Below are positions 1,705 through 12,071 of a stretch of 12,071 nt of DNA, piece by piece. Source of the DNA: a virus; UHGV virus genome UHGV-0371921. One strand, given 5' to 3'. Both the position numbers and the translations under genes were made by a program. The stretch's first letter is position 1. Every line of letters starts with the position of its first letter. Under the pieces are notes generated by a model, which was not told where the DNA came from, ran no database searches, and saw nothing but the letters and a program-made list of their open reading frames with translations.

Positions 1705-2037
1705 ATGAAAGTACGCTTTATTGGTGAAACAATTCCTGTGCATCTCCGGTCGCCTGGGGATTCTGCAGATCTTGCATCTCAGAAGGCGAGAGGCTATGAT
1801 AAGAAAGTAACCTCAACCGATGTAGTGCTTGAGGCTACTAGTCTACCTGACCCTGCTGCATTCTTTAATCATTATGGATACTATTTCAGCAATCTGATGA
1901 ATATCGGTGAGCTTGTGTTTATTAGTGGTGGAGAAATTGTTAGCAAGCTTGGCGGCGATCCGGATGTCTTTCATGAAACCTGTCCTTTTGCATTTGTGGT
2001 GGGTTCAGATGTGGAAGTTATTGAGGAGGTGCGGTAA
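1705..2037 (+). CDS. hypothetical small acidic protein (110 aa)
   Basis: Track ORF begins at TTG 1678, but the first in-frame ATG (1705) lies 4 nt after the upstream stop and is the more likely start. C-terminus ends ...VVGSDVEVIEEVR. Confidence 0.6.
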   Translation: MKVRFIGETIPVHLRSPGDSADLASQKARGYDKKVTSTDVVLEATSLPDPAAFFNHYGYYFSNLMNIGELVFISGGEIVSKLGGDPDVFHETCPFAFVVGSDVEVIEEVR

Positions 2038-2432
2038 TGGTAAGCCTATACCGTGTTGAGTATAGCTCAGATACTGTATACAACGTAAGAAGCAAAGATC
2101 GCAGCGACAGAGTGCAAGAAATGTATGTTCTTGCCGACAGTCCGTTATCTGCAGCGTTCAAGGCAGGGGCTCTTGCATCTCGTTGGAAATTTGAAGGCGG
2201 ATCTTTCTATGAAGAAACCCTTGAAGATTCTGTTGTTATTTCTTCTGTAGAGGTTTCAGATGACTACGAAGGGAAAAAGTTCGTAATGCGGCACCCACAC
2301 AGCAACATTGCGTACTACTGGGATGTTCTGAACAACGAGTGGACCCCAGATCTTCAGAAGGCTACTGTGCTAACACCGTTTTTGGCAGATAAGTTCCCAC
2401 CAGATGGTAATTTATCCGCACTGTTTCAGTAA
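2037..2432 (+). CDS. hypothetical protein (131 aa); paralog of the fragment at 1..230
   Basis: ATG overlaps upstream TAA (TAATG); GAGGAGGTG SD upstream; HP.S...YW......WTP motif shared with the 1..230 fragment. Confidence 0.7.
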   Translation: MVSLYRVEYSSDTVYNVRSKDRSDRVQEMYVLADSPLSAAFKAGALASRWKFEGGSFYEETLEDSVVISSVEVSDDYEGKKFVMRHPHSNIAYYWDVLNNEWTPDLQKATVLTPFLADKFPPDGNLSALFQ

Positions 2433-2440
2433 TTTTCTTG

Positions 2441-2479
2441 CACACAGGTGTTGACAACACCAACCCTGTGTGAAATAAT
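2441..2479 (+). promoter_or_regulatory. sigma70-like promoter TTGACA-N17-AATAAT with the -35 box embedded in an 8 bp inverted repeat
   Basis: TTGACA 2451-2456, AATAAT 2474-2479; inverted repeat CACACAGG 2441-2448 / CCTGTGTG 2465-2472 flanks the -35 box (possible operator). Confidence 0.5.
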
Positions 2480-2511
2480 ACCTTCATCTTAACAAGACGG
2501 GAGACTGATTG

Positions 2512-2769
2512 ATGAAGATTAAACTGAAAAACCTTGAAATGGCAGAGATTCAGGATGGTGTTGATTTCCGCTCTAAAGATGGTGACATCTTAGAGGTAAA
2601 TCTTCCAACCTACGAGCTGATTAAAGGTTTTGGCAACGTTCAGGAAGAGGATATTCCAGAAGCTCTTATGATGTTGATTCTTGACGGAACTGTGTTTGTA
2701 GGTGAAGGTGAGAACGCTATTGCAATCCCAGGCCATTTTTATGAAGTAGCTGACGAAGAGGTGCTGTAA
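2512..2769 (+). CDS. hypothetical small acidic protein (85 aa); paralog of the 1076..1345 product
   Basis: Track starts at TTG 2509; ATG 2512 with GGGAG 9 nt upstream is preferred. MKIKL start and VFVGEGENAIAIPGHFYEVADEEVL tail resemble the 1076..1345 product. Confidence 0.65.
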   Translation: MKIKLKNLEMAEIQDGVDFRSKDGDILEVNLPTYELIKGFGNVQEEDIPEALMMLILDGTVFVGEGENAIAIPGHFYEVADEEVL

Positions 2770-3120
2770 ATGAAAGTAGAAATTACTGGTTTTGATGTTA
2801 GTGTGGTTCCGGAAGATATTTTAGCTAACTTACCGGAAGGTTTTGGTAACGGTGTTGTGGTGGATGCTGTTCCTCCTACCAAAGACATTCTGCTGCAGTA
2901 TGGTGTAGCAGAGAAAGATGTCGATAAAGTTCTTACAATGATGGCAATCGATCGTGTTGTCGTTGTTAAAGGTCTCGATAATTTTGAGAGTGATCCTCTG
3001 ATTATTCGCGGAGATGACTACAAAATCATCGATAATGAAGGCCAAGAGTTCTATGAGCCTTGTGCAGAAGATATTCTTAACTTATTACTGGAAGCAGGCA
3101 CCGAAGAGGAGGACGAATAA
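2770..3120 (+). CDS. hypothetical acidic protein (116 aa)
   Basis: ATG follows upstream TAA directly; GAGGTG SD; acidic C-terminus. Confidence 0.7.
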   Translation: MKVEITGFDVSVVPEDILANLPEGFGNGVVVDAVPPTKDILLQYGVAEKDVDKVLTMMAIDRVVVVKGLDNFESDPLIIRGDDYKIIDNEGQEFYEPCAEDILNLLLEAGTEEEDE

Positions 3121-3449
3121 TGAAGATTGACCAGTTACTGAAGGCTCGTGCAGAAAAAGCGTACACCATTAAGCTGACCAATCTGGTTCCTACTTGTCAT
3201 CCGGATGTAGGTTGGCCCGAAGGTCTGGTAGAGGGAACTGTAACAGCTGCATACCTTCCTGACATCAAGTACCTTATGGAGATCTTAGAGATGGATGAGG
3301 AAACTGCAGAACAGTTCCAGTTAGATATGAAACAGAGTGGGACTCTGGTTATTCACGGGTGGTATAATACTAAAGATGCAGAAGACCCTCTGGTAACTTC
3401 TAATCTGGCATATGAAATCTTAGGTCCTTTGAACCTGGAGGAAGACTAA
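3120..3449 (+). CDS. hypothetical acidic protein (109 aa)
   Basis: TAATG overlap with upstream gene; GAGGAGGA SD. Confidence 0.7.
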   Translation: MKIDQLLKARAEKAYTIKLTNLVPTCHPDVGWPEGLVEGTVTAAYLPDIKYLMEILEMDEETAEQFQLDMKQSGTLVIHGWYNTKDAEDPLVTSNLAYEILGPLNLEED

Positions 3450-3736
3450 TGAAAGATCTGGTTAAGATTAAGATTAAAGATACCAATGGAGAACTCAGCC
3501 ATTTTGGAATTAATGATGGTGACGAGCTGATCGCACACCTGCCTACTAAGGAGGTTGTAAGCAAAGCAGTTGCCGGAGAAGAAGCTGCAATGCAGGCTGC
3601 AGGCGTGGATGAAAACTATGTAGCTATGTGCATGTGCCGAGATCAGGTTGTTCTGTATAAAGCGTATCGACCAAACGGAGCCACGGAGTGGCTTGTATTC
3701 CGACCCGAAGGATATGAAATCTTAGAGGCACTATGA
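3449..3736 (+). CDS. hypothetical protein (95 aa)
   Basis: TAATG overlap with upstream gene; GGAGG SD. Confidence 0.7.
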   Translation: MKDLVKIKIKDTNGELSHFGINDGDELIAHLPTKEVVSKAVAGEEAAMQAAGVDENYVAMCMCRDQVVLYKAYRPNGATEWLVFRPEGYEILEAL

Positions 3737-3816
3737 TAAATCTTGCCAAGGTTGCAACGGCACTGTTAATTATTTGCTGGTCTGTAACCTTAACACTGTG
3801 TCTTGTATTTCAGTGA
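3733..3816 (+). CDS. small hydrophobic peptide (27 aa, MINLAKVATALLIICWSVTLTLCLVFQ), predicted single transmembrane helix
   Basis: ATG 3733 overlaps upstream stop (ATGA); AGAGG 5 nt upstream; stop TGA 3814-3816; below ORF-track cutoff. Confidence 0.35.
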   Translation: MINLAKVATALLIICWSVTLTLCLVFQ

Positions 3817-3825
3817 GGTGCTTGT

Positions 3826-4089
3826 ATGAACATCCTGATGTGGGTTATAGCAGTGGCGTTTGTTGCATGTTTTTGCTGCTGGGTTGCGGTGAGGATTTCT
3901 GTAGCTACCCTTCGGAAGTTGGGGTTCTCAGAATGGGATATTAATATCCTTTCTTTTCGCAATGAAACAATCTCAGCCGCCCTGCTTTGTAAGAAATTCA
4001 AGTGGGAACCTTGTGAGGTCATGAGCTATCTAAGAACAGGCGATATCCCTGAAAGATTTAAAAAAGTTCTTGACGGCAAAGATAAATGA
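3826..4089 (+). CDS. small membrane protein (87 aa) with N-terminal transmembrane helix
   Basis: ATG 3826 with GTGAGGTG SD 7 nt upstream; N-terminus MNILMWVIAVAFVACFCCWVAV is strongly hydrophobic. Confidence 0.65.
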   Translation: MNILMWVIAVAFVACFCCWVAVRISVATLRKLGFSEWDINILSFRNETISAALLCKKFKWEPCEVMSYLRTGDIPERFKKVLDGKDK

Positions 4090-4117
4090 CAGTATAGTGA
4101 CTAACAAGAGGTGAGGA

Positions 4118-4258
4118 GTGACTGATTTTACTGAAGCTTTAATGATGGCCTTGTCTGTTTTAGCGCTATCGGTGTGTTTTGGGGCGTTATTCACATCTCT
4201 GGTTAAAGTTTTACATACAGTATTATTACCCAAGGGGCGCAGTAATGACGAAGATTGA
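4118..4258 (+). CDS. small hydrophobic peptide (46 aa from GTG 4118, or 38 aa from ATG 4142)
   Basis: AAGAGG 4106-4111 lies 6 nt before GTG 4118; product ...MMALSVLALSVCFGALFTSLVKVLHTVLLPKGRSNDED contains one hydrophobic helix; 3' end overlaps the next gene start by 14 nt. Confidence 0.35.
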   Translation: MTDFTEALMMALSVLALSVCFGALFTSLVKVLHTVLLPKGRSNDED

Positions 4259-4496
4259 CTTGAATGCTGGAGACCATGTTGTTGTCAAATGCATCGGAGA
4301 TTATCTTGGATTCACAATCGGCAATACTTACGAGGCGGTAGTGGCGAAGGTTTATCATGATAAAGTCCTCAGTCTTGTATTTGACTGCGATGATGATGGA
4401 GATGACCGATACGTCTGTGAGGTGCTGGCACGAGACGACAGTGAAGACCAGAAATTCCTGGTTATTGAACTGAACGGTATTTTTGTAGAACGTTAA
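4245..4496 (+). CDS. hypothetical acidic protein (83 aa)
   Basis: Track begins at TTG 4179; the in-frame ATG 4245 with AAGGGG 7 nt upstream is preferred; contains DCDDDGDD acidic stretch. Confidence 0.6.
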   Translation: MTKIDLNAGDHVVVKCIGDYLGFTIGNTYEAVVAKVYHDKVLSLVFDCDDDGDDRYVCEVLARDDSEDQKFLVIELNGIFVER

Positions 4497-4524
4497 TTTA
4501 AAACAACATAAGGAGACTCTTACT

Positions 4525-4830
4525 ATGGCTAAATCTAAAGTTGAACTGTTCACCTCTCTTCCTTCTGACACTGCAGAGCGTGATCGCCTTCGCAAGACAA
4601 TCGAAGAACTGGTGGAACTCCAACTTCAGATTAAAGATCTGAAAGATGCCATTAAGGATATCATTCTCGTTGAGAAGCAGGATCACCTGTATTCTCCTAA
4701 ATTCATCAAATCTTTGGTGGCTACCGAGTTCGATATTCGCTATGAGGCTGAAAAACGTCGAGCTAAAATCGAAGAAGAGGTTGAGCACATGTCCGAGGCA
4801 GACATTCTGTTCAAACGCTCTGTAGAATAA
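4525..4830 (+). CDS. hypothetical charged, probably alpha-helical or coiled-coil protein (101 aa)
   Basis: Consensus AAGGAG 4510-4515, 9 nt before ATG; strong terminator directly downstream; heptad-like charged sequence. Confidence 0.75.
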   Translation: MAKSKVELFTSLPSDTAERDRLRKTIEELVELQLQIKDLKDAIKDIILVEKQDHLYSPKFIKSLVATEFDIRYEAEKRRAKIEEEVEHMSEADILFKRSVE

Positions 4831-4838
4831 TGACAAAG

Positions 4839-4863
4839 AGAGGGGCTTGGGCCCCTCTTTTTA
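4839..4863 (+). terminator. intrinsic terminator (AGAGGGGC-TTGG-GCCCCTCT then TTTTT)
   Basis: Perfect 8 bp GC-rich stem 4839-4846 / 4851-4858 followed by T5 tract. Confidence 0.8.
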
Positions 4864-4885
4864 CTATCTATGAAGGAGATTTGAG

Positions 4886-5218
4886 ATGGGTATACCGATC
4901 ACTGTAAAAGAATTGAATGAACGTGATGCAGGTGGTCTATGGCCTGCACGAAAAATACGCTGCATCCGTATGAAAGAGAACCTTGAGCATCTTGAGCAAC
5001 AGAAACGGATTGAGGTTGGTGATATTTTCGAAGTATTTTATTCTGATCGCCGTAACTGGGAAACCATTCAACCTTCCGGTTTTGTTCTTGCTAAGCTTGA
5101 CACTGGAGAAGTGATTGTTCCTGGGTTGGATATTGTCTTCGAAATTATCCAGGAGTGGGATCCGGACAAGATTAGATACGAAGAGCTATTCGGTGAAGGT
5201 ATTATCAAACCTGTGTGA
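4886..5218 (+). CDS. hypothetical protein (110 aa)
   Basis: ATG 4886 with AAGGAG 7 nt upstream. Confidence 0.7.
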   Translation: MGIPITVKELNERDAGGLWPARKIRCIRMKENLEHLEQQKRIEVGDIFEVFYSDRRNWETIQPSGFVLAKLDTGEVIVPGLDIVFEIIQEWDPDKIRYEELFGEGIIKPV

Positions 5219-5226
5219 GGTGGATT

Positions 5227-5526
5227 ATGTCTACAAAGGCGGCTAAATACTCCTACATGCCATCAACCTCTGCAGAGGTAGACTTTAGTTTCGATGTGTT
5301 TCCACTGTTTGAGGTGGTTCTGGCATACCCAACAATACTATCTACTCCTGAATCACTTGTGCCTGTTAAGTTGCAGAACGCTATGCATTCCATGCACTAC
5401 AACAACAAATGTAGGCACAGATGGTGTCAGGACGAGGAAAAAGATTTGGATAGTTTGAGAGATTTTGACAGTCACCTTTTGACACCTTTCAGCTACTCCA
5501 ACCTTGATAAGCCCTCGTGGGTATAG
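5227..5526 (+). CDS. hypothetical protein (99 aa)
   Basis: Track starts at GTG 5215; ATG 5227 with GTGAGGTGG SD is preferred. Composition is less typical (His/Cys-rich middle), so moderate confidence; followed by a terminator. Confidence 0.5.
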   Translation: MSTKAAKYSYMPSTSAEVDFSFDVFPLFEVVLAYPTILSTPESLVPVKLQNAMHSMHYNNKCRHRWCQDEEKDLDSLRDFDSHLLTPFSYSNLDKPSWV

Positions 5527-5550
5527 CAAAATATCAAATTTAAGACACCT

Positions 5551-5580
5551 AGGACGCTCTGTGGCGTCCTTTTCTTTATC
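5551..5580 (+). terminator. intrinsic terminator (AGGACGC-TCTGTG-GCGTCCT then TTTCTTTAT)
   Basis: 7 bp stem 5551-5557 / 5564-5570 followed by T-rich tract. Confidence 0.7.
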
Positions 5581-5739
5581 TGGTGCACGATTGCATACCT
5601 TGGGCAGTTAATCTCATTACAGAGCGTTTAAGAGCTCCCTACAAACAACTCCATATTTCGAGCGTAGCGAGAACGCACGTCCGTTTTGACCCAAATCACC
5701 ATACGCTCGGATTTTAACCAAACCCTCGCGGCGTTTCTG

Positions 5740-5768
5740 TTGACACATTACCGCTCCAGTGATAATAT
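5740..5768 (+). promoter_or_regulatory. sigma70-like promoter TTGACA-N17-TAATAT
   Basis: TTGACA 5740-5745, 17 nt spacer, TAATAT 5763-5768; a DnaA-box-like ATATCCACA overlaps the start region at 5765-5773. Confidence 0.55.
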
Positions 5769-5788
5769 CCACACATCATTTGGAGAAT

Positions 5789-5890
5789 ATGGGATACACA
5801 ATGAAAACATTGTCAGAGGTTTTGGTGGTGATCCTGATGATCATTACGTCCATAGCAGCTGTTGCCGGAATACTCACGGGTGGAACATGA
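5789..5890 (+). CDS. small hydrophobic peptide (33 aa, MGYTMKTLSEVLVVILMIITSIAAVAGILTGGT)
   Basis: First ORF downstream of the 5740 promoter; GGAGA 3 nt before ATG 5789 (alternative ATG 5801); one predicted transmembrane helix; below ORF-track cutoff. Confidence 0.4.
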   Translation: MGYTMKTLSEVLVVILMIITSIAAVAGILTGGT

Positions 5891-6101
5891 TCAACACACA
5901 CATGCATCTGAAGAGACATCCAAAGGAGTGACTATATGTCCCTTGGCTGAGCCAGTGAAAGAGGAAAACTTAGATTCTGAAGATTCTCCATCTTCGCTCC
6001 AGGTAGATCCTGAGGCTGATGACCTAACGTGGGAAGACATCGTAGATATCTGGTTCTCTATTATGCCTGAGCACGAAGAGTTCAGAGGTGGTAGACTATG
6101 A
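5862..6101 (+). CDS. hypothetical highly acidic protein; 5' end uncertain (track TTG 5862; alternatives TTG 5943, GTG 5955)
   Basis: Open frame with acidic, protein-like C-terminal half (EENLDSEDSPSSLQVDPEADDLTWEDIVDIWFSIMPEHEEF). No good SD before 5862; AAGGAG 5923-5928 instead serves a 4-codon mini-ORF (ATG 5936 to TGA 5948-5950). Confidence 0.4.
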   Translation: MPEYSRVEHDQHTHASEETSKGVTICPLAEPVKEENLDSEDSPSSLQVDPEADDLTWEDIVDIWFSIMPEHEEFRGGRL

Positions 6102-6222
6102 AGCACCGAGCCCACACAGGTTCCTCATGCTAAAGCATGGCCTGAAGAGGCAAACGTGCATAATTCCTGTGCATTGGGACGTATAAAACCCTGTTCACAC
6201 TCTCATTTCCAGAGGAGATTTT

Positions 6223-6438
6223 ATGAAGATAGAAATATTTGGTGGAGCTGACAACACTCGTGGCCTGATTTACCTTGAATTCGATGAATCATACCTGCCA
6301 GAGGTGTTAAATATAGACTCTGTTGCTGAGGCTTTGGGAGTAAACCCTAAAGAACTCCACTCTTGTGCTGAGATCGATGGTTGGGAAGAGACCATGAACA
6401 TTGATTTCAGTGAAGTAGAGGATGAACCGCTGGACTGA
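6223..6438 (+). CDS. hypothetical acidic protein (71 aa)
   Basis: ATG 6223 with GAGGAG 5 nt upstream; last gene of the rightward block. Confidence 0.6.
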   Translation: MKIEIFGGADNTRGLIYLEFDESYLPEVLNIDSVAEALGVNPKELHSCAEIDGWEETMNIDFSEVEDEPLD

Positions 6439-6532
6439 CGCACAATTAGCTGCCCGGCCAAAGTGCTGGAAGCGCACCTATAACACATCTTTCAACTAAA
6501 TTTCCCACCACCACAATCACTTACCTTCCACA

Positions 6533-6565
6533 CATGACTGTTTGCTTGTTTAGTGAGCAGTCATG
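6533..6565 (+). other. inverted repeat CATGACTG-N17-CAGTCATG immediately upstream of a promoter
   Basis: 8 bp arms at 6533-6540 and 6558-6565. Confidence 0.4.
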
Positions 6566-6567
6566 CC

Positions 6568-6595
6568 TTGACATTCTTGCCTATCCTGATAAAAT
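6568..6595 (+). promoter_or_regulatory. sigma70-like promoter TTGACA-N16-TAAAAT reading into the ORF-free zone
   Basis: TTGACA 6568-6573, 16 nt spacer, TAAAAT 6590-6595; no ORF with a ribosome binding site follows. Confidence 0.45.
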
Positions 6596-7119
6596 TAAGT
6601 TCTTCTCTTTTCTTTTACCGAGTAATTCGGGTTTTCTGTTCTCTTCGGTTTGAAGGGGTATGGAGATACACCTGAGTGAACAGGGTGAACAACCGAACCA
6701 TTGGCTATGGCATTAGCATGGCGAAGCGGACGGGTGACGAAAGAGGGGCCGGAGGACACCAGTCACTGCCATATGATATATGGGTGATAACCTGAAGAGT
6801 CTGAATAAGTGTTTAAGTACCAGTCAGAGGAAAAGGTGAATGGTAGCCGAAGGGGAGGGGGGTTTCTTGTATCTTTAATTTGTATATTATGTATACACTT
6901 GTAAACCAATCTCATCTGAATCTGTTTACCACACAAAGCGAATAGAGACAAATATTACCTATTAAACTTGAATTATTTATAGAAAATACCGCAACACCAC
7001 TTAAGTCTTTGATTTTACACACAAATCCTACAGATATTCAGCCTCCCTATTTAACATACCTGTAACATATTCCATACTCTACCTGCCTGATCAATTTACC
7101 CAACTACATCCCCATATTT

Positions 7120-7350
7120 TCCCTGTCTGTACTACCCCTGCCCCGCCGGGAGTCCCGTCATATCTGGCTTTCCAGCAAATATCACACCCACAAATATCAT
7201 TGCCTGAAGAGGGTTTCATCCCATAATACATACCTTGCCTGAAGATCGCTTCATACACCACGTAAATTTTTTAATTGACCTGCAATTTCTCCTCAGATAT
7301 CCCCCTGTCCCGCCGGAGAGGTTGTCTTTTCCCACACAGACCTGAAGAGT
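7120..7350. repeat. degenerate ~175 bp duplication carrying CCCTG(C/T)CCCGCCGG and CCTGAAGAG motifs
   Basis: CCCTGCCCCGCCGGGAG at 7134-7150 versus CCCTGTCCCGCCGGAG at 7302-7317; CCTGAAGAG at 7203-7211 and 7341-7349 (also CCTGAAGAT at 7238-7246). Confidence 0.5.
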
Positions 7351-7544
7351 CAGTCAGAAATATCTGAATGGGCCCAGTTCTGCCCTGTCATGAGCGGTAG
7401 CGACTGGAGTGCTGCCAGGCGGACGGAATGGGAATACTTCTCATTCTTATAATAATTCTCAAATATCGAGGCAGTGAGGCAAATTAATAGGTGAGGCCGT
7501 TCACACAGTGGCACAACATTTGCAATCTATTTTGTGAGGGTGAA

Positions 7545-7579
7545 TGAGAATACCTATCATTGTGAGAATCTTTATCATT
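7545..7579. repeat. imperfect tandem repeat TGAGAAT(ACC/CTT)TATCATT x2
   Basis: Copies at 7545-7561 and 7563-7579, 14 of 17 positions identical. Confidence 0.5.
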
Positions 7580-7933
7580 ACGGGCAATTTAACATAATAC
7601 CCATTATGCGCACCACTGGCGATACATACAGGGATTGATAACATAGGTTACTGTTTACGCACATAACAATTATATTTCTTATTATTTGTGGGGGGATATA
7701 GTTAGCAGCCAATAGATTAGATATTGACCTGCAGACTTCTGACCGTCCAGACGTCTAAACGCCCACACAACAAGGATTATACATACAACACTGAATGTAA
7801 ACAGGGCCGCAAAAATGCTACCATACAAGCTTGTAAATTTTTCATGCAGCACTTGACAAAGAGGAGAAAAACTTGTCTGACATAATATGACACTTTAAGC
7901 ACATTAAACACACTGAACATAATTGACATGCAT

Positions 7934-8038
7934 GACTGTTTACGCTGTCACTATTCACGCTATTACTATTCGCTCGCTTACTGTTCATGACCTTTACTGT
8001 TTACATTCCCAATAGTTTACATAGCTTACTGTTAACGT
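7934..8038. repeat. iteron-like cluster of ACTGTTTAC / TTACTGTT direct repeats
   Basis: Exact ACTGTTTAC at 7935-7943 and 7996-8004 (also 7650-7658 and 8472-8480 outside the cluster); variants TTACTGTTCA 7978-7987, TAGTTTACA 8013-8021, TTACTGTTAAC 8026-8036; all in one orientation. Confidence 0.6.
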
Positions 8039-8064
8039 ATAGATTATTTACTCAAAAATGATAA

Positions 8065-8084
8065 GCCATGCCATTCGTTTGCAT
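8065..8084. repeat. 20 bp direct repeat GCCATGCCATTCGTTTGCAT, left copy
   Basis: Identical 20-mer recurs at 8296-8315. Confidence 0.8.
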
Positions 8085-8130
8085 GACAATAATTATACAT
8101 GACAATAATCGCACTGATTATAATTAGCAT

Positions 8131-8282
8131 GACATAATATAAAAGCAGGGCAACTATTAGCAGATCTATAGTTGCCTTGCTTGTTATGTCATGATTAACT
8201 GAATACAAGGCAACTATGATCTGATTAATAGATTGCAGACAAACTATCACGGGGGTGATGGTTACTGCTTTTATATTATGTC
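8131..8282. repeat. 16 bp inverted repeat pair GACATAATATAAAAGC (8131-8146) / GCTTTTATATTATGTC (8267-8282) enclosing the palindrome
   Basis: Exact reverse complements. Confidence 0.75.
8149..8176. repeat. 28 bp palindrome GGCAACTAT-N10-ATAGTTGCC (candidate protein-binding site)
   Basis: 9 bp arms are exact reverse complements; further GGCAACTAT copies at 8209-8217 (direct) and 8314-8322 (inverted); 12-mer CAAGGCAACTAT is shared by the arm at 8168-8179 and the copy at 8206-8217. Confidence 0.75.
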
Positions 8283-8295
8283 GCGACTCCGTCGC

Positions 8296-8315
8296 GCCAT
8301 GCCATTCGTTTGCAT
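8296..8315. repeat. 20 bp direct repeat GCCATGCCATTCGTTTGCAT, right copy
   Basis: Identical to 8065-8084; preceded by small hairpin CGCGAC-TCC-GTCGCG (8282-8296). Confidence 0.8.
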
Positions 8316-8929
8316 AGTTGCCTTATTGTTACAGATAGAATAATTGTATTGTTAATTATTTCTTATCTTTCTATTAGTCATCTAATGATTCCAGTTAGTA
8401 TAGTAACGTACAGTAAACATTAGACGACTAAAGATTTCTCTGCTTATGGTAACCTAACGTGACAATTCCAGACTGTTTACGAAAAATGTTGACACTTGGG
8501 CCGATTTATGTTATGCAGTTTACACGAATAATTATTTTATGCAGGTATTGACTATTCCGTTATTCTATGGTTGGAATAAATGCTTAGCAGGCTATAGAAT
8601 GGCGAGCGTACGTAAATTCTGAGATCTGGCGGCTATAGTTATACTCGATTTTTCACGTAGAAAACGCTTTTGTAGTTATGTAAGTGTATGACTTATAAGA
8701 ATTTTTAGTTGTTGACAAGCTATTGAAGATATGCATCAGGTTAAATTTTGTGCAAATGCTGCATTACGTGCAATTTTGGAAGGAAAAACGTGTAAAAATG
8801 GCCCTGCTACCACACAATGAAAAATTATGCAATAGTTATTTTATATGTATGTTTGTACAGTGGGGTTAATTGCTGGCTTGTTGATTATTCCATTTGCCAG
8901 GCGGGGCCATTTGTGGTAGGAAAAGAGGA

Positions 8930-8958
8930 GACAAAAGAAAGGGGCTTTAAGCCCCTGA
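8930..8958 (-). terminator. intrinsic terminator of the leftward gene block (minus RNA: AGGGGCU-UAA-AGCCCCU then UUUCUUUUGUC)
   Basis: 7 bp stem plus U tract on the minus strand, just downstream of the last minus-strand stop codons (8976 / 8987). Confidence 0.7.
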
Positions 8959-8975
8959 CCGTGCACCTTGTTGTA

Positions 8976-9110
8976 TTATTTGTTGCTCATCCAGTTTTCC
9001 CAAGCTGCCTGATAATCTGCCTCACTACGGCGGATCTCTTCTTGCTCTTCAAGGCGGATCTCTTCTTCCAGGTACCCCAAGATGTCAGCCTTTTTGGTCT
9101 GGCGTAACAT
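8976..9110 (-). CDS. alternative -1 frame ORF (44 aa, MLRQTKKADILGYLEEEIRLEEQEEIRRSEADYQAAWENWMSNK), possibly the true C-terminal part of the 9238 gene
   Basis: Protein-like acidic sequence with EEEIR repeat; no strong SD of its own; fully overlapped by the track ORF in another frame. Confidence 0.3.
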   Translation of the reverse strand: MLRQTKKADILGYLEEEIRLEEQEEIRRSEADYQAAWENWMSNK

Positions 9111-9238
9111 CCAATCATCTTTTTACGAGTGAAGATCTTATAAGCTTTCTCGCAAACCTCTTTTTTGCTACCTTTCTGGACTTCAAGAATTCTGTAGGCC
9201 ATGTACTGAACTAATTTAAGCTGATCCAGACGTTTCAT
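8987..9238 (-). CDS. hypothetical protein; 3' half likely out of frame (see frameshift finding)
   Basis: ATG 9238 with AAAGAGGA 7 nt upstream; N-terminal 40 aa protein-like, but residues after about 40 are Lys/Arg/Ser/Trp-rich, typical of out-of-frame translation. Confidence 0.4.
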   Translation of the reverse strand: MKRLDQLKLVQYMAYRILEVQKGSKKEVCEKAYKIFTRKKMIGCYARPKRLTSWGTWKKRSALKSKKRSAVVRQIIRQLGKTG

Positions 9239-9315
9239 GATGTTTCCTCTTTATGTGGTTCGTTTTGATTAGTTGATAATACAGCAGTTCGCAGATCAGT
9301 CTTTAGCAATTCATG

Positions 9316-9534
9316 CTATTTACTCACAACGGTGTCGAAAACAAATTTTTCTTTATTGTCTAAACTCACGTATCCGATTCGACCACGCAAGCCGCAAGTA
9401 GTGCCGTACTCGTAACCATTAAGGCCTTTAACCTTCCAATCCGTACCCATTAAAACCGCATTATATTCCTGACCAACTACAAAAGCGCCCCCAGTCGATT
9501 CAATGCAAACAACTTTAATTTTACGGGTTGTCAT
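9316..9534 (-). CDS. hypothetical protein (72 aa)
   Basis: ATG 9534 with AAGAGAG upstream in a CCACACAAAGAGAG leader. Confidence 0.65.
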   Translation of the reverse strand: MTTRKIKVVCIESTGGAFVVGQEYNAVLMGTDWKVKGLNGYEYGTTCGLRGRIGYVSLDNKEKFVFDTVVSK

Positions 9535-9566
9535 TTTCTTTCTCTCTTTGTGTGGTTCTGATTAGT

Positions 9567-9580
9567 GGGCCTTTTGGCCC
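9567..9580 (-). other. GC-rich stem-loop in 5' leader (GGGCC-AAAA-GGCCC on minus RNA)
   Basis: Perfect 5 bp stem; lies between a candidate promoter and the SD of the 9316..9534 gene. Confidence 0.5.
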
Positions 9581-9588
9581 GTGTCATT

Positions 9589-9617
9589 ATCTTATTACTT
9601 ATGGCGGCAGAATTCAA
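9589..9617 (-). promoter_or_regulatory. candidate sigma70-like promoter TTGAAT-N17-TAAGAT (minus strand)
   Basis: Minus-strand -35 at 9617-9612 and -10 at 9594-9589; overlaps the 3' end of the upstream gene. Confidence 0.3.
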
Positions 9618-9867
9618 GTGTTTTTAATTGATAATCTTCCTCAGCCTGGAGTACGACCGCCTCGATCATTTCGTTGGCATTGTTAAAGCCATAACCTTTA
9701 GCGAACTCATCCGCGCCACCTTCGTGATCATGTTCTGCGTTCATCGCTTCCACAAAATGGAATTCCAAATTGTTGAGGTAGGGGCTTGATGTGCCGTCTT
9801 CTTTTTCGATGAGATCCCAAATAGCATTAAAACGTGATTCGACTTCTTGATTAATCCAGCTTGACAT
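9595..9867 (-). CDS. hypothetical acidic protein (90 aa)
   Basis: ATG 9867 with AGGAGAGAGG upstream. Confidence 0.65.
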   Translation of the reverse strand: MSSWINQEVESRFNAIWDLIEKEDGTSSPYLNNLEFHFVEAMNAEHDHEGGADEFAKGYGFNNANEMIEAVVLQAEEDYQLKTLEFCRHK

Positions 9868-9896
9868 AGTGTTTTCCTCTCTCCTGGTTATTGTGT

Positions 9897-9910
9897 GGGC
9901 ACTTTTGCCC
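9897..9910 (-). other. GC-rich stem-loop in 5' leader (GGGCA-AAAG-TGCCC on minus RNA)
   Basis: Directly downstream of the -10 of the 9922-9950 promoter and upstream of the SD. Confidence 0.5.
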
Positions 9911-9921
9911 CTTCAAGATAA

Positions 9922-9950
9922 ATGTTACCCCACCCCATGGCAGATGTCAA
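9922..9950 (-). promoter_or_regulatory. sigma70-like promoter TTGACA-N17-TAACAT (minus strand)
   Basis: Minus-strand TTGACA at 9950-9945, 17 nt spacer, TAACAT at 9927-9922; in a 210 bp intergenic gap. Confidence 0.45.
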
Positions 9951-10036
9951 CGGTTTTTATAGTTCTTATATGACAGGCAGGCCCGGTGATTGTCTCCACC
10001 CGTCGCCAGGTGCCTGCCGTGAAACAAGTATAACAA

Positions 10037-10064
10037 AAAACAGGACCATTGCAAGCCCTGTTTT
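10037..10064 (-). terminator. candidate intrinsic terminator (minus RNA: AAAACAGG...CCUGUUUU running into a U6 tract)
   Basis: Inverted repeat 10037-10044 / 10057-10064 with 12 nt loop; U tract on the minus strand; immediately after the stop of the 10079..10270 gene. Confidence 0.4.
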
Positions 10065-10078
10065 GTAGTTTATAAGGA

Positions 10079-10270
10079 TTATATTTTTTCGCCTATGTAG
10101 TCCGGTCGGTTTTTCTCTGTCATGCGCTTGAGCAATTCTTGCATGTTGCTTATGGCTTGCAGTGTATCCCCTTCCAGACTTGAATCAACATAATCAGGAT
10201 CGTCTATAACCTTTCTATGATTATGATAACGCAGTACCGCCAATACCTTTCTAACTTGTTCGATATTCAT
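10079..10270 (-). CDS. hypothetical protein (63 aa)
   Basis: ATG 10270; weak SD AAAGAGCG; protein-like sequence. Confidence 0.6.
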   Translation of the reverse strand: MNIEQVRKVLAVLRYHNHRKVIDDPDYVDSSLEGDTLQAISNMQELLKRMTEKNRPDYIGEKI

Positions 10271-10281
10271 TTTATCGCTCT

Positions 10282-10416
10282 TTAAAACAAGGTGCCAACC
10301 GTTCCCAATAGATCACTGACTACCAGGACAATACTGATTAGCACATACCTAACCATAAGGGGAAAGAGCGCCAGCGATCCAGCCACAATCCCCAAGGTGA
10401 TGATTATCTTTCTCAT
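10282..10416 (-). CDS. small hydrophobic protein (44 aa), two predicted transmembrane segments
   Basis: ATG 10416 lies 2 nt after the upstream stop (translational coupling); no clear SD; below track cutoff. Confidence 0.4.
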   Translation of the reverse strand: MRKIIITLGIVAGSLALFPLMVRYVLISIVLVVSDLLGTVGTLF

Positions 10417-10418
10417 GG

Positions 10419-10703
10419 TTAACGGTTTACGTAAGCTTTACCGTTTACGGTGATGGGCAGATCTTCCAGGTCTGGATCTTCCTTAAGGTCGCGAGCAAGC
10501 TCACCGCACCGGATACCCTCGAATCCGTAGTACTCTGTTGTGCCGTCATTAAAAGTTTTAGCGGCAAGGCATAAGCGATAAGTAACCCCGATTTGATTGA
10601 CGGCATGGATATCCGTTAGATTAACCTCTTTTGCCAGCTCTTTAGCCATTACAGGCGCATTAAGTCCAACAACCAGGGCAACTACTGCGATCATCTTTTT
10701 CAT
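10419..10703 (-). CDS. small secreted or periplasmic protein with N-terminal signal peptide (94 aa, two Cys)
   Basis: ATG 10703 with AAGAGG 9 nt upstream; MKKMIAVVALVVGLNAPVMA-KEL has positive n-region, hydrophobic core and AxA-like cleavage motif. Confidence 0.7.
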   Translation of the reverse strand: MKKMIAVVALVVGLNAPVMAKELAKEVNLTDIHAVNQIGVTYRLCLAAKTFNDGTTEYYGFEGIRCGELARDLKEDPDLEDLPITVNGKAYVNR

Positions 10704-10731
10704 TGTGTCTAGCCTCTTTCTGCTACGTTTA

Positions 10732-10749
10732 AGGCGGCGGTAACCGCCT
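10732..10749 (-). other. GC-rich stem-loop in 5' leader (AGGCGG / CCGCCT, 6 nt loop)
   Basis: Perfect 6 bp inverted repeat upstream of the SD of the signal-peptide gene. Confidence 0.45.
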
Positions 10750-10794
10750 GTTTATGATTTATTGGTTAATTTTCAGGTATCGCTATAAATTAAA

Positions 10795-11010
10795 CTATGC
10801 TGTACGCTCAACTATAACAACGGTTTGCGGGATCTCACCTTCCACCACTATCAAGGCCTTTTTCTGCGTGATGGATATCTTTACCCGTTGCAGCGTGGCG
10901 GTGAAGTCTTTCATTTCGTCACGTGGTGTTTTAGTGCAATGCCAGATCTCTGGCTTGCCGATCTGCAAGCCTCGCAAGAATTCCGTTTTACCTGTCTTAT
11001 TCGTGATCAT
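10795..11010 (-). CDS. hypothetical protein (71 aa from ATG 11010; track extends to ATG 11034)
   Basis: ATG 11010 has AAGGTG 6 nt upstream, whereas ATG 11034 has no SD; more protein-like than the two overlapping plus-strand ORFs. Confidence 0.5.
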   Translation of the reverse strand: MITNKTGKTEFLRGLQIGKPEIWHCTKTPRDEMKDFTATLQRVKISITQKKALIVVEGEIPQTVVIVERTA

Positions 11011-11020
11011 TTGATTCACC

Positions 11021-11125
11021 TTAACCGATACCATGGGAAGATAGGATCATGTTAGCCATAGTTGCAACCACTCCAACCGATAATGCCAGGCCAACTACTA
11101 CAACCGTGAAAATTTTATCTAACAT
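11021..11125 (-). CDS. small hydrophobic peptide (34 aa, MLDKIFTVVVVGLALSVGVVATMANMILSSHGIG)
   Basis: ATG 11125 with GAGGG about 7 nt upstream; single hydrophobic helix; below track cutoff. Confidence 0.35.
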   Translation of the reverse strand: MLDKIFTVVVVGLALSVGVVATMANMILSSHGIG

Positions 11126-11144
11126 GATTCTACCCTCATTAATG

Positions 11145-11161
11145 GCGGGAAGTATTCCCGC
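11145..11161 (-). other. stem-loop GCGGGAA-GTA-TTCCCGC (7 bp stem, 3 nt loop)
   Basis: Perfect palindrome just upstream of the SD of the 11021..11125 peptide. Confidence 0.45.
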
Positions 11162-11207
11162 GCTATGTAGTACACTTTACCAGATTGTTGACTGTTGTCA
11201 AACTATT

Positions 11208-11387
11208 TTAACGATAATCATCATATGCTTTATTGACCTGGCGAATATAACATTCAAAAGCTAGATCAATAGATTTATATTCACGGATATATTCACCATA
11301 GGAAACCACATACATTTCTATAGCTTCCTCATATGCGAGAAGAATAGAATCTAAGCCTACGATCTCAGTCTTTGCAATAATAGCCAT
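11208..11387 (-). CDS. hypothetical acidic protein (59 aa, MAIIAKTEIVGLDSILLAYEEAIEMYVVSYGEYIREYKSIDLAFECYIRQVNKAYDDYR)
   Basis: ATG 11387 with AAAGAGGA upstream in a CCACAAAGAGGA leader; shares the MAI start context with the 12036 gene; missing from track because below 60 aa. Confidence 0.5.
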   Translation of the reverse strand: MAIIAKTEIVGLDSILLAYEEAIEMYVVSYGEYIREYKSIDLAFECYIRQVNKAYDDYR

Positions 11388-11413
11388 GATTTTTTATCCT
11401 CTTTGTGGTTGGT

Positions 11414-11428
11414 GGGGCTTGTTGCCCC
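11414..11428 (-). other. GC-rich stem-loop in 5' leader (GGGGC-AACAA-GCCCC on minus RNA)
   Basis: Perfect 5 bp stem upstream of the SD of the 11208..11387 gene. Confidence 0.5.
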
Positions 11429-11463
11429 CTTTGATTTATATACTACAGTCTTATATGGTCATG

Positions 11464-11697
11464 TCAACTATTTTCAAAAAATTTTTCTGCTGTGATATTT
11501 TTCCCGGTAGGGTTCGCTACTTTCAAAATTTTATCATGCACTGGACGCCCAAAAGAATAAGATCCGTATACAGTAAACCAATAATCGCCGTCAGGTTGTA
11601 CTATTACCGCCGCATATGGTACGCCTTTTTCGTTTTTGCTGACAAAATAGATCACATTGCCATTAATAGCCTCAGCGCGTTTAATTTGTTCCATCAT
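11464..11697 (-). CDS. hypothetical protein (77 aa)
   Basis: ATG 11697 with AGAGAGG upstream. Confidence 0.6.
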   Translation of the reverse strand: MMEQIKRAEAINGNVIYFVSKNEKGVPYAAVIVQPDGDYWFTVYGSYSFGRPVHDKILKVANPTGKNITAEKFFENS

Positions 11698-11727
11698 GAT
11701 GATTTACCTCTCTTTATTTTCATAATT

Positions 11728-11744
11728 GGGGCCTTTTCGGCCCC
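11728..11744 (-). other. GC-rich stem-loop (GGGGCC-GAAAA-GGCCCC on minus RNA)
   Basis: Perfect 6 bp GC stem between the stop of the 11752 gene and the SD of the 11697 gene. Confidence 0.5.
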
Positions 11745-11751
11745 GCCAGGT

Positions 11752-12036
11752 TTATTTATTGATAGCGTGCAGCGGGAAAGGTACGCCAGGTTGATAGATA
11801 ACTTTTACAACCTCATCAGGGCAAAAGAAATTGCAGAATTCACCCTGATAAGCCTCATCCTCTTTCAATTCTTCATCAACATACTCAAAAAAGTAGTCGA
11901 TGCTTGGATAATCCTGGCCGGGATTATAGTCTACCATCGTTAATAACAATTCTTGATCATTCCGTAGGATATGCATACCCGCTTTTAAGTATTTTGCTTC
12001 CATTTCCACTACATCGCCAACGGTGACAATAGCCAT
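11752..12036 (-). CDS. hypothetical acidic protein (94 aa)
   Basis: ATG 12036 with AGGAG about 8 nt upstream; protein-like; the overlapping 185 aa plus-strand ORF looks like an antisense artefact. Confidence 0.65.
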   Translation of the reverse strand: MAIVTVGDVVEMEAKYLKAGMHILRNDQELLLTMVDYNPGQDYPSIDYFFEYVDEELKEDEAYQGEFCNFFCPDEVVKVIYQPGVPFPLHAINK

Positions 12037-12071
12037 GATTTTAACTCCTATCTATCCACGCACTCGTCTGA

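Follow-up and report, generated by a model that had tools for sequence, protein, structure and literature searches.

A one-adenine homopolymer lesion in the rV5 gp160 ortholog of a Vequintavirus genome

The last gene of a leftward gene cluster in the virus genome UHGV-0371921 is spread over two reading frames, which raises the question of whether its product is made by programmed recoding or whether the gene has lost its frame through the loss of a single nucleotide, in the phage itself or in its recorded sequence. The window, i.e., the whole stretch of 12,071 nt that was analyzed, contains this gene at positions 8976–9238 on the minus strand. The initial annotation described it as a probable −1 frameshift next to a short tandem repeat and named a programmed frameshift, a homopolymer sequencing error, and a pseudogene as the explanations to be considered.

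Reading frames of the gene and its intact relatives

The ORFs of the window included a minus-strand ORF of 83 aa at 8987..9238, starting from ATG 9238, and a second minus-strand ORF of 44 aa at 8976..9110, which lies in another frame and overlaps the first one. A good Shine–Dalgarno sequence (GAGG) precedes ATG 9238. The distance from this ATG to the stop at 8976 is 263 nt (3 × 87 + 2), and the C-terminal frame is therefore the −1 frame. The 0 frame, which had been described as protein-like for about 40 codons, was protein-like exactly up to codon 40, after which the protein continued in the −1 frame to the stop at 8976. Searching the window by tblastn with the intact ortholog of phage JeffSchatz placed aa 1–40 in one frame and aa 40–87 in the other, both with 100% identity, which confirmed the acidic C-terminus that had been read in the −1 frame. 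A terminator-like hairpin (8956–8940) and a T tail follow 3′ of the gene stop, so that the term "terminal leftward gene" holds for this window; the tail itself contains a window-specific A4/A5 homopolymer discrepancy at 8933–8936. Scans of the window against Rfam and for tRNA genes gave no matches. The features of the locus are listed in Table 1.

Table 1. Coordinates of the features at the disrupted gene (positions in the window)
Feature	Position	Strand	Basis or remark
Disrupted rV5 gp160/ORF165 ortholog (PHROG 11701; 87 aa if intact)	8976..9238	−	263 nt vs. 264 nt in relatives
A5 run (plus strand: T5), where one nt is missing compared with A6 of orthologs	9120..9124	−	Alignment, indel lists, run lengths across loci
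First A6 run of the gene, AGC AAA AAA GAG (Ser-Lys-Lys-Glu)	9161..9166	−	Intact in the window
Second A5G run, CCAAAAAGG, not the lesion	9091..9095 (motif 9089–9097)	−	Same in intact orthologs
Tail of the 83-aa product read out of frame (43 basic residues, MIGCYARPKRLTSWG...)	8987..9118	−	Product of the deletion; not a conserved coding frame
44-aa ORF bearing the genuine C-terminal half, MLRQTKKADILGYLEEEIRLEEQEEIRRSEADYQAAWENWMSNK	8976..9110	−	ORF list, tblastn
Ribosome-binding region, AAAGAGGAAACATC ATG	9241..9251	−	Read from the sequence
Intrinsic-terminator-like hairpin, AGGGGCTTAAAGCCCCT, and T-rich tail	8931..8956	−	Ends the leftward gene cluster
Two 24-nt units, 75% identical, with an exact 15-nt repeat (9029–9043 / 9053–9067)	9016..9067	−	Encodes EEEIR(L)EEQ-EEIR(R)

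The gene region matched 142 phage records, nearly all of which were Escherichia Vequintavirus (rV5-like myoviruses), with APECc02 (99.8%), rV5_ev146 (99.7%), and JeffSchatz/Bas55 (99.6%) as the best regional matches, while the best identities over the whole 12 kb were about 97% in the phage collection, which hence does not contain this very genome. The window belongs to Vequintavirus, i.e., to an rV5-like coliphage. In APECc02, rV5 (gp160/ORF165), and Gotham, the gene is annotated as a single 264-nt CDS translated into one 87-aa protein, the C-terminus of which is the −1-frame peptide of the window. The sole length difference in the DNA alignment with these three phages was one A (A6 in the relatives and A5 in the window), the codons at the lesion being CGY AAA AAA GAT in the relatives vs. 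CGT AAA AAG ATG in the window (9119–9127). Thus, the comparison with orthologs, which the initial annotation itself had put forward as a check, rejected its reading of a probable or programmed −1 frameshift: the orthologs have the −1-frame sequence as their C-terminus, in one frame, with A6 and a single 87-aa ORF.

The two A5G runs had been placed correctly, CGTAAAAAG at 9119–9127 and CCAAAAAGG at 9089–9097, and the break indeed falls at the former, whereas the latter is irrelevant, as it is the same in intact orthologs. The rare AGG codon that had been noted after it is no codon at all in the true frame (ACC AAA AAG GCT). Slippage at the second run or at AGG was rejected on the same grounds, and also because its product would differ from the family at residues 41–48.

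The restored protein of the window was identical to APECc02_064 and rV5 gp160 and matched PHROG 11701, which comprises 87-aa Vequintavirinae hypothetical proteins and is listed as function unknown, over profile positions 1–87 of 87 (E = 1e-54). In a large protein collection, the gp160 family formed 26 clusters, most of them of 87 aa. The window shares with this family the place of the gene as the last one of the leftward cluster, upstream of the terminator, and its position after the gp161 and gp162 homologs is kept in the annotated regions of APECc02, rV5, Gotham, ime, and JeffSchatz; however, the window copy is frame-disrupted, unlike the other members. When 35 JeffSchatz proteins were mapped to the window by tblastn, all were found intact in one frame except the gp160 ortholog, which was the only split gene. 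The AlphaFold2 model of the family was all-helical, with a long helix at residues 50–86, and of low confidence (pLDDT 64.5). A Pfam scan of the 87-aa protein returned only sub-threshold matches to unrelated families (LRR_TTSS, 15.7 bits; DUF2726, 14.3 bits).

It should be noted that many GenBank records (APECc02_064, ime_92, and many of the MN8505xx/MN8506xx series) label this gene "DNA translocase FtsK". This assignment is unsupported: the Pfam scan revealed no FtsK/SpoIIIE ATPase or gamma domain, PHROG 11701 is of unknown function, and the protein has only 87 aa. The label looks like a propagated annotation error.

The tandem repeat next to the break was also described correctly, namely, as a perfect 15-bp direct repeat (9029–9043 / 9053–9067) with a period of 24 that encodes the EEEIR repeat. 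At the protein level, it corresponds to a small duplication (EEEIRLEEQ / EEIRRSE) inside the C-terminal helix. By a rough estimate, an exact 15-mer repeat in 263 nt is far beyond chance (~3e-5). TRF scored no array in the gene, because only two copies are present. The repeat is conserved in orthologs, with one mismatch in the first copy in rV5, and is contracted by one 24-nt unit in one allele of the family (P0013). The repeat is real, conserved, and unremarkable. The frame break is situated at least 52 nt upstream of it, and no mechanism links the two.

Recoding, deletion, or miscall

That the full-length protein is normally made by programmed −1 ribosomal frameshifting, or by transcriptional slippage, at U_AAA_AAG was considered extremely improbable. 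The 0-frame codons at the junction are CGU AAA AAG, in which the A-site tetramer A_AAG, the most shift-prone one in E. coli (PMC4066793), is present, a −1 slip after codon 40 yields the exact 87-aa wild-type protein, and a hairpin can be drawn from 6 nt downstream. However, restoration of the wild type follows automatically from the deletion of one A in a Lys-Lys A6 run and hence is no evidence of design. The two-frame layout is not conserved: with the intact 264-nt gene as the query, the gene was exactly 264 nt, a single ORF with A6, in 58 of the best 60 of 121 phage records. The heptamer is imperfect, having U at position one, so that P-site re-pairing is mismatched at its first position, and no GGAGG-like, i.e., Shine–Dalgarno-like, element was found in the 20 nt upstream of the slip site (AAGATCTTCACTCGT). 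The downstream 69 nt folded at −17.3 kcal/mol, no better than shuffled sequences (mean −14.45; z = −1.03; 29 of 200 shuffles folded as well), and the intact orthologs share this sequence. According to Sharma et al. (2014), tetramers without stimulators shift at about 0.15% (~0.147%) against a background of about 0.11% (0.112%), A_AA.G being the best of them, and reach up to 5.6% only with a strong pseudoknot (PMC4066793). Transcriptional slippage requires long A/T tracts, typically of 7–9 nt or more, as is well established (PMC5009743), whereas the junction tract is far shorter (5 nt, 9120–9124). Programmed frameshifting was thus rejected by the comparison of orthologs, by the lack of stimulators, and by the efficiencies in the literature.

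The window shares AAA_AAG, tRNA-Lys, and a meaningful −1 product with the E. coli dnaX and IS-element sites, which consist of A_AAA_AAG, a Shine–Dalgarno-like element, and a hairpin or pseudoknot; unlike those sites, its heptamer begins with U and has neither an upstream stimulator nor significant downstream structure, and the two-frame layout is absent from the orthologs of the gene. The locus also resembles "savior" or compensated indels, such as that of the G7 run of the herpes simplex thymidine kinase gene, which shows compensatory frameshifting at a low level (PMC5009743), where a homopolymer indel occurs and rare slippage could regenerate the wild type, as here; nevertheless, the locus bears no sign of selection for the indel or of a need for residual product, and the expected leak is at the 0.1% level. 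At most, residual −1 slippage would make the locus a "compensated indel" as the Atkins review uses the term (PMC5009743), adventitious and at trace level. Consequently, of the three explanations offered in the initial annotation, the programmed frameshift was dropped, while the homopolymer miscall and the fresh pseudogene were retained. The locus is an ordinary 1-nt homopolymer lesion in a known but uncharacterised phage gene family and represents a miscall or else a fresh pseudogene.

A genuine slipped-strand deletion of one A in the phage DNA of this lineage was the preferred reading, with a probability of about 0.5. Under such a mechanism, an ordinary 87-aa Vequintavirus accessory gene would have lost one A (A6 to A5) in codons 39–41 by a Streisinger-type slipped-strand event, so that a dispensable gene would very recently have acquired a loss-of-function allele. 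Translation from ATG 9238 would then run correctly for 40 residues and out of frame for 43 basic ones before stopping at 8987, and everything after residue 40 would be replaced, including the predicted long acidic C-terminal helix and the EEEIR repeat. Background −1 slippage on U_AAA_AAG would at most produce traces of the exact wild-type protein, with no recoding signal involved. It is reasonable to suppose that the truncated product is non-functional.

Streisinger slipped-strand frameshifts occur at short homopolymers, and runs of A are their classical hot spots in the rII and lysozyme genes of phage T4. The window resembles these cases in having a change of ±1 nt in an A6 run of a phage gene that is recurrent at the same tracts (A5 and A7; both runs) and in the truncated out-of-frame product, and nothing essential distinguishes it from them.

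A sequencing or assembly artefact, in which the phage truly carries the intact 87-aa gene with its A6 and the homopolymer was undercalled as A5 in the consensus, was considered a quite realistic, though tentative, alternative. An undercount of 1 nt in a 6-nt homopolymer is the classic error of flow-based sequencing. The exact 83-aa product is recorded on three contigs, of which the listed two belong to JGI 2051223002 (mc18a_MC18A_contig18185, also IMG/VR UViG_2051223002_000007) and Logan SRR053014. The JGI contig was 99.96% identical to window positions 1864–12057, differing by one SNP and otherwise in homopolymers only (8933–8936 and 6852–6862), while the Logan contig was identical to positions 6858–12057 save for 8933–8936. 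The window has A4 at 8933–8936, where both the JGI and Logan assemblies have A5, and G4AG6 at 6852–6862, where the JGI contig has G5AG5; the close relatives compared also lack these miscounts, and the window-specific lengths are likely consensus errors in its source. The disagreement between the window and its sisters means that at least one assembly contains homopolymer errors, and the miscounts in the window raise the prior probability of an artefact. The sample accessions also look like old, presumably 2010-era, data, from a time when pyrosequencing was common. Both halves of the gene have 100% amino acid identity to intact orthologs; the complete absence of decay downstream of the break is as compatible with an artefact as with a very recent mutation.

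Against an artefact, A5 in the gene is common to the window and to the JGI and Logan assemblies despite their differences at other runs, although the three may derive from one read set, in which case their agreement is not independent. No frame break was found at 36 of the 37 coding homopolymer runs of at least 5 nt in the window, so that only one run breaks a frame, and the JGI sister contig had no other mid-gene frameshift in 13 further genes. In addition, the same class of alleles was found in other data sets and in an isolate genome. Compared with typical flow-based or nanopore miscalls, the window likewise has a single-base undercount in a 6-nt run together with two other discrepant homopolymers; in contrast to them, its A5 is common to three assemblies and the remaining coding sequence is clean. 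We infer that the base was lost from the phage DNA itself and is not missing from the reads alone. The more exotic readings of the locus, even when combined, were judged clearly improbable.

Alleles of the A-runs and the control gene

When a 67-nt query centred on the run was used, the A5 allele was found in none of the 69 matching phage records. Meanwhile, alleles at the lesion run were revealed in other backgrounds. A5 was present in the lineage of the window (P0023) and in three further backgrounds, P0024 (ERR4562514), P0027, and P0028. A7 was likewise present in three backgrounds, namely, rV5_ev146 (LR699804.1, record positions 108719–108983), in which the gene has 265 nt, the NCBI assembly GCA_028607445.2, and two ENA gut-metagenome contigs; some names of the A7 contigs (k127_) suggest a short-read metagenome assembler. 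The other A6 run of the gene (GSKK|E) was shortened to A5 in P0025, P0026, and P0029, and in phage Alma (P0021) A5 at this first run was part of a double shift restored downstream. In P0018, an in-frame deletion of 42 nt was found between both A-runs, which sit in a 13-nt direct repeat. Of the best 60 phage records, the two departing from 264 nt were rV5_ev146 and "Campylobacter phage D1", the latter with 266 nt (the P0022 allele). The pattern scan of IMG/VR for further alleles returned the sister contig only, that of metagenome contigs returned two contigs, both with A6, and that of genome contigs gave no matches. As A5 and A7 alleles recur in independent backgrounds, such mutations appear to circulate and to be tolerated, and the number of lesion alleles found in nature indicates that, at least in some conditions, the phages can do without the gene.

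The annotation of the isolate genome of rV5_ev146 splits the gene into a pair of "Phage protein" genes (41 and 44 aa), which should be treated as one frameshifted gene. Another peculiarity of the public records is that 17–24 MG0656xx entries named "Campylobacter phage" (host C. jejuni) are 93–99% identical to this E. coli Vequintavirus region, and these are probably mislabelled or contaminant genomes.

The rV5 gp171 homolog (window 11755–12036, minus strand, 94 aa), which has one mid-gene T6 run, served as the control gene. Frameshift alleles located exactly at T6 were detected in its family, namely, P0049 (56 aa, 5 members) and P0050 (52 aa, 3 members), among approximately 385 members, i.e., at a per-run frequency of the same order as in the target gene. 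Locus-specific hypermutability was therefore not supported. As the control gene shows the same class of alleles, homopolymer frameshift alleles, whether mutations or errors, are general to these small accessory genes in public data and no peculiarity of the target gene.

The same comparison bears on contingency switching, according to which the two A6 runs would be mutational ON/OFF switches used by Vequintaviruses to vary accessory-gene expression, and which was considered very improbable. The recurrence of A5, A6, and A7 alleles at the second run and of A5 at the first one in several independent backgrounds agrees with it, as does the fact that the intact gp160-family gene holds two of the few coding homopolymers of at least 6 nt in the window. 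However, the T6 run of the control gene has a similar per-run frequency of frameshift alleles (P0049, P0050), 6-nt A/T tracts are short in comparison with known phase-variable tracts, and intact A6 strongly predominates among the best 60 of the 121 phage records. An extended version, in which low-level −1 slippage on AAA_AAG would add a leaky third state to these A6 ON/OFF switches and lead to heterogeneous expression, was rated lower still. If true, the resulting heterogeneity of the accessory protein could be of use, for instance, as a form of bet-hedging where a host defence senses the protein.

Neighbourhood of the gene and its annotation

Directly downstream of the gp160 ortholog, phages rV5, ime, and Murica contain an extra gene of 139 aa (rV5 gp159/ORF164), for which the Murica record notes a "Rel homology domain". 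In ime, this gene is flanked by two copies of the terminator hairpin, whereas a single hairpin is present in the window, APECc02, JeffSchatz, and Gotham, all of which lack the 139-aa cassette. The arrangement of these sequences suggests that the cassette was gained or lost between the hairpin copies.

The leftward and rightward gene clusters of the window are separated by a 2.3-kb gene-poor stretch (~6640–8975), the core of which (~7890–8130) is hypervariable among close relatives. Since the annotated terminal repeat of Gotham (record positions 1–459) adjoins this stretch, the physical ends of the genome probably map to it. The last 14 bases of the window (12058–12071) matched neither the sister contig nor any relative, all alignments stopping at 12057, and may represent a contig-end artefact or a junction.

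Other length differences were observed away from the target gene. At 10270–10281 (T4 vs. T5) and 11388–11395 (T6 vs. T5), the window has lineage-specific differences from APECc02, ime, and JeffSchatz, which are located in the spacers just upstream of two start codons; being intergenic, they are harmless to the reading frames, and they could change the spacing of the ribosome-binding sites. In the JGI sister contig, about 290 nt of the JeffSchatz bas55_0118 homolog are missing (contig ~4414–4420), and at ~1647 A8 is found vs. A6 two codons before the stop of the bas55_0110 homolog. An 88-aa fusion (P0046–P0048) unites the N-terminal 54 residues of the gp171 homolog (11755–12036) with the C-terminal part of a 63-aa protein (10079–10270), which points to a deletion of about 1.5 kb that removed the intervening genes in some Vequintavirus genomes.

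As a lesion of the gp160 ortholog, the frame break carries little biological weight and is a routine point of annotation and quality control. The gene is to be annotated as a frameshifted rV5 gp160 ortholog (pseudogene or low-quality sequence), and neither as a case of recoding nor as two genes. AAA_AAG sites created by indels in A-runs encoding Lys-Lys mimic frameshift signals, and alleles of ±1 nt are frequent at 6-nt homopolymers in small accessory genes of Vequintaviruses in public data, which calls for caution in screens for recoding in phages.
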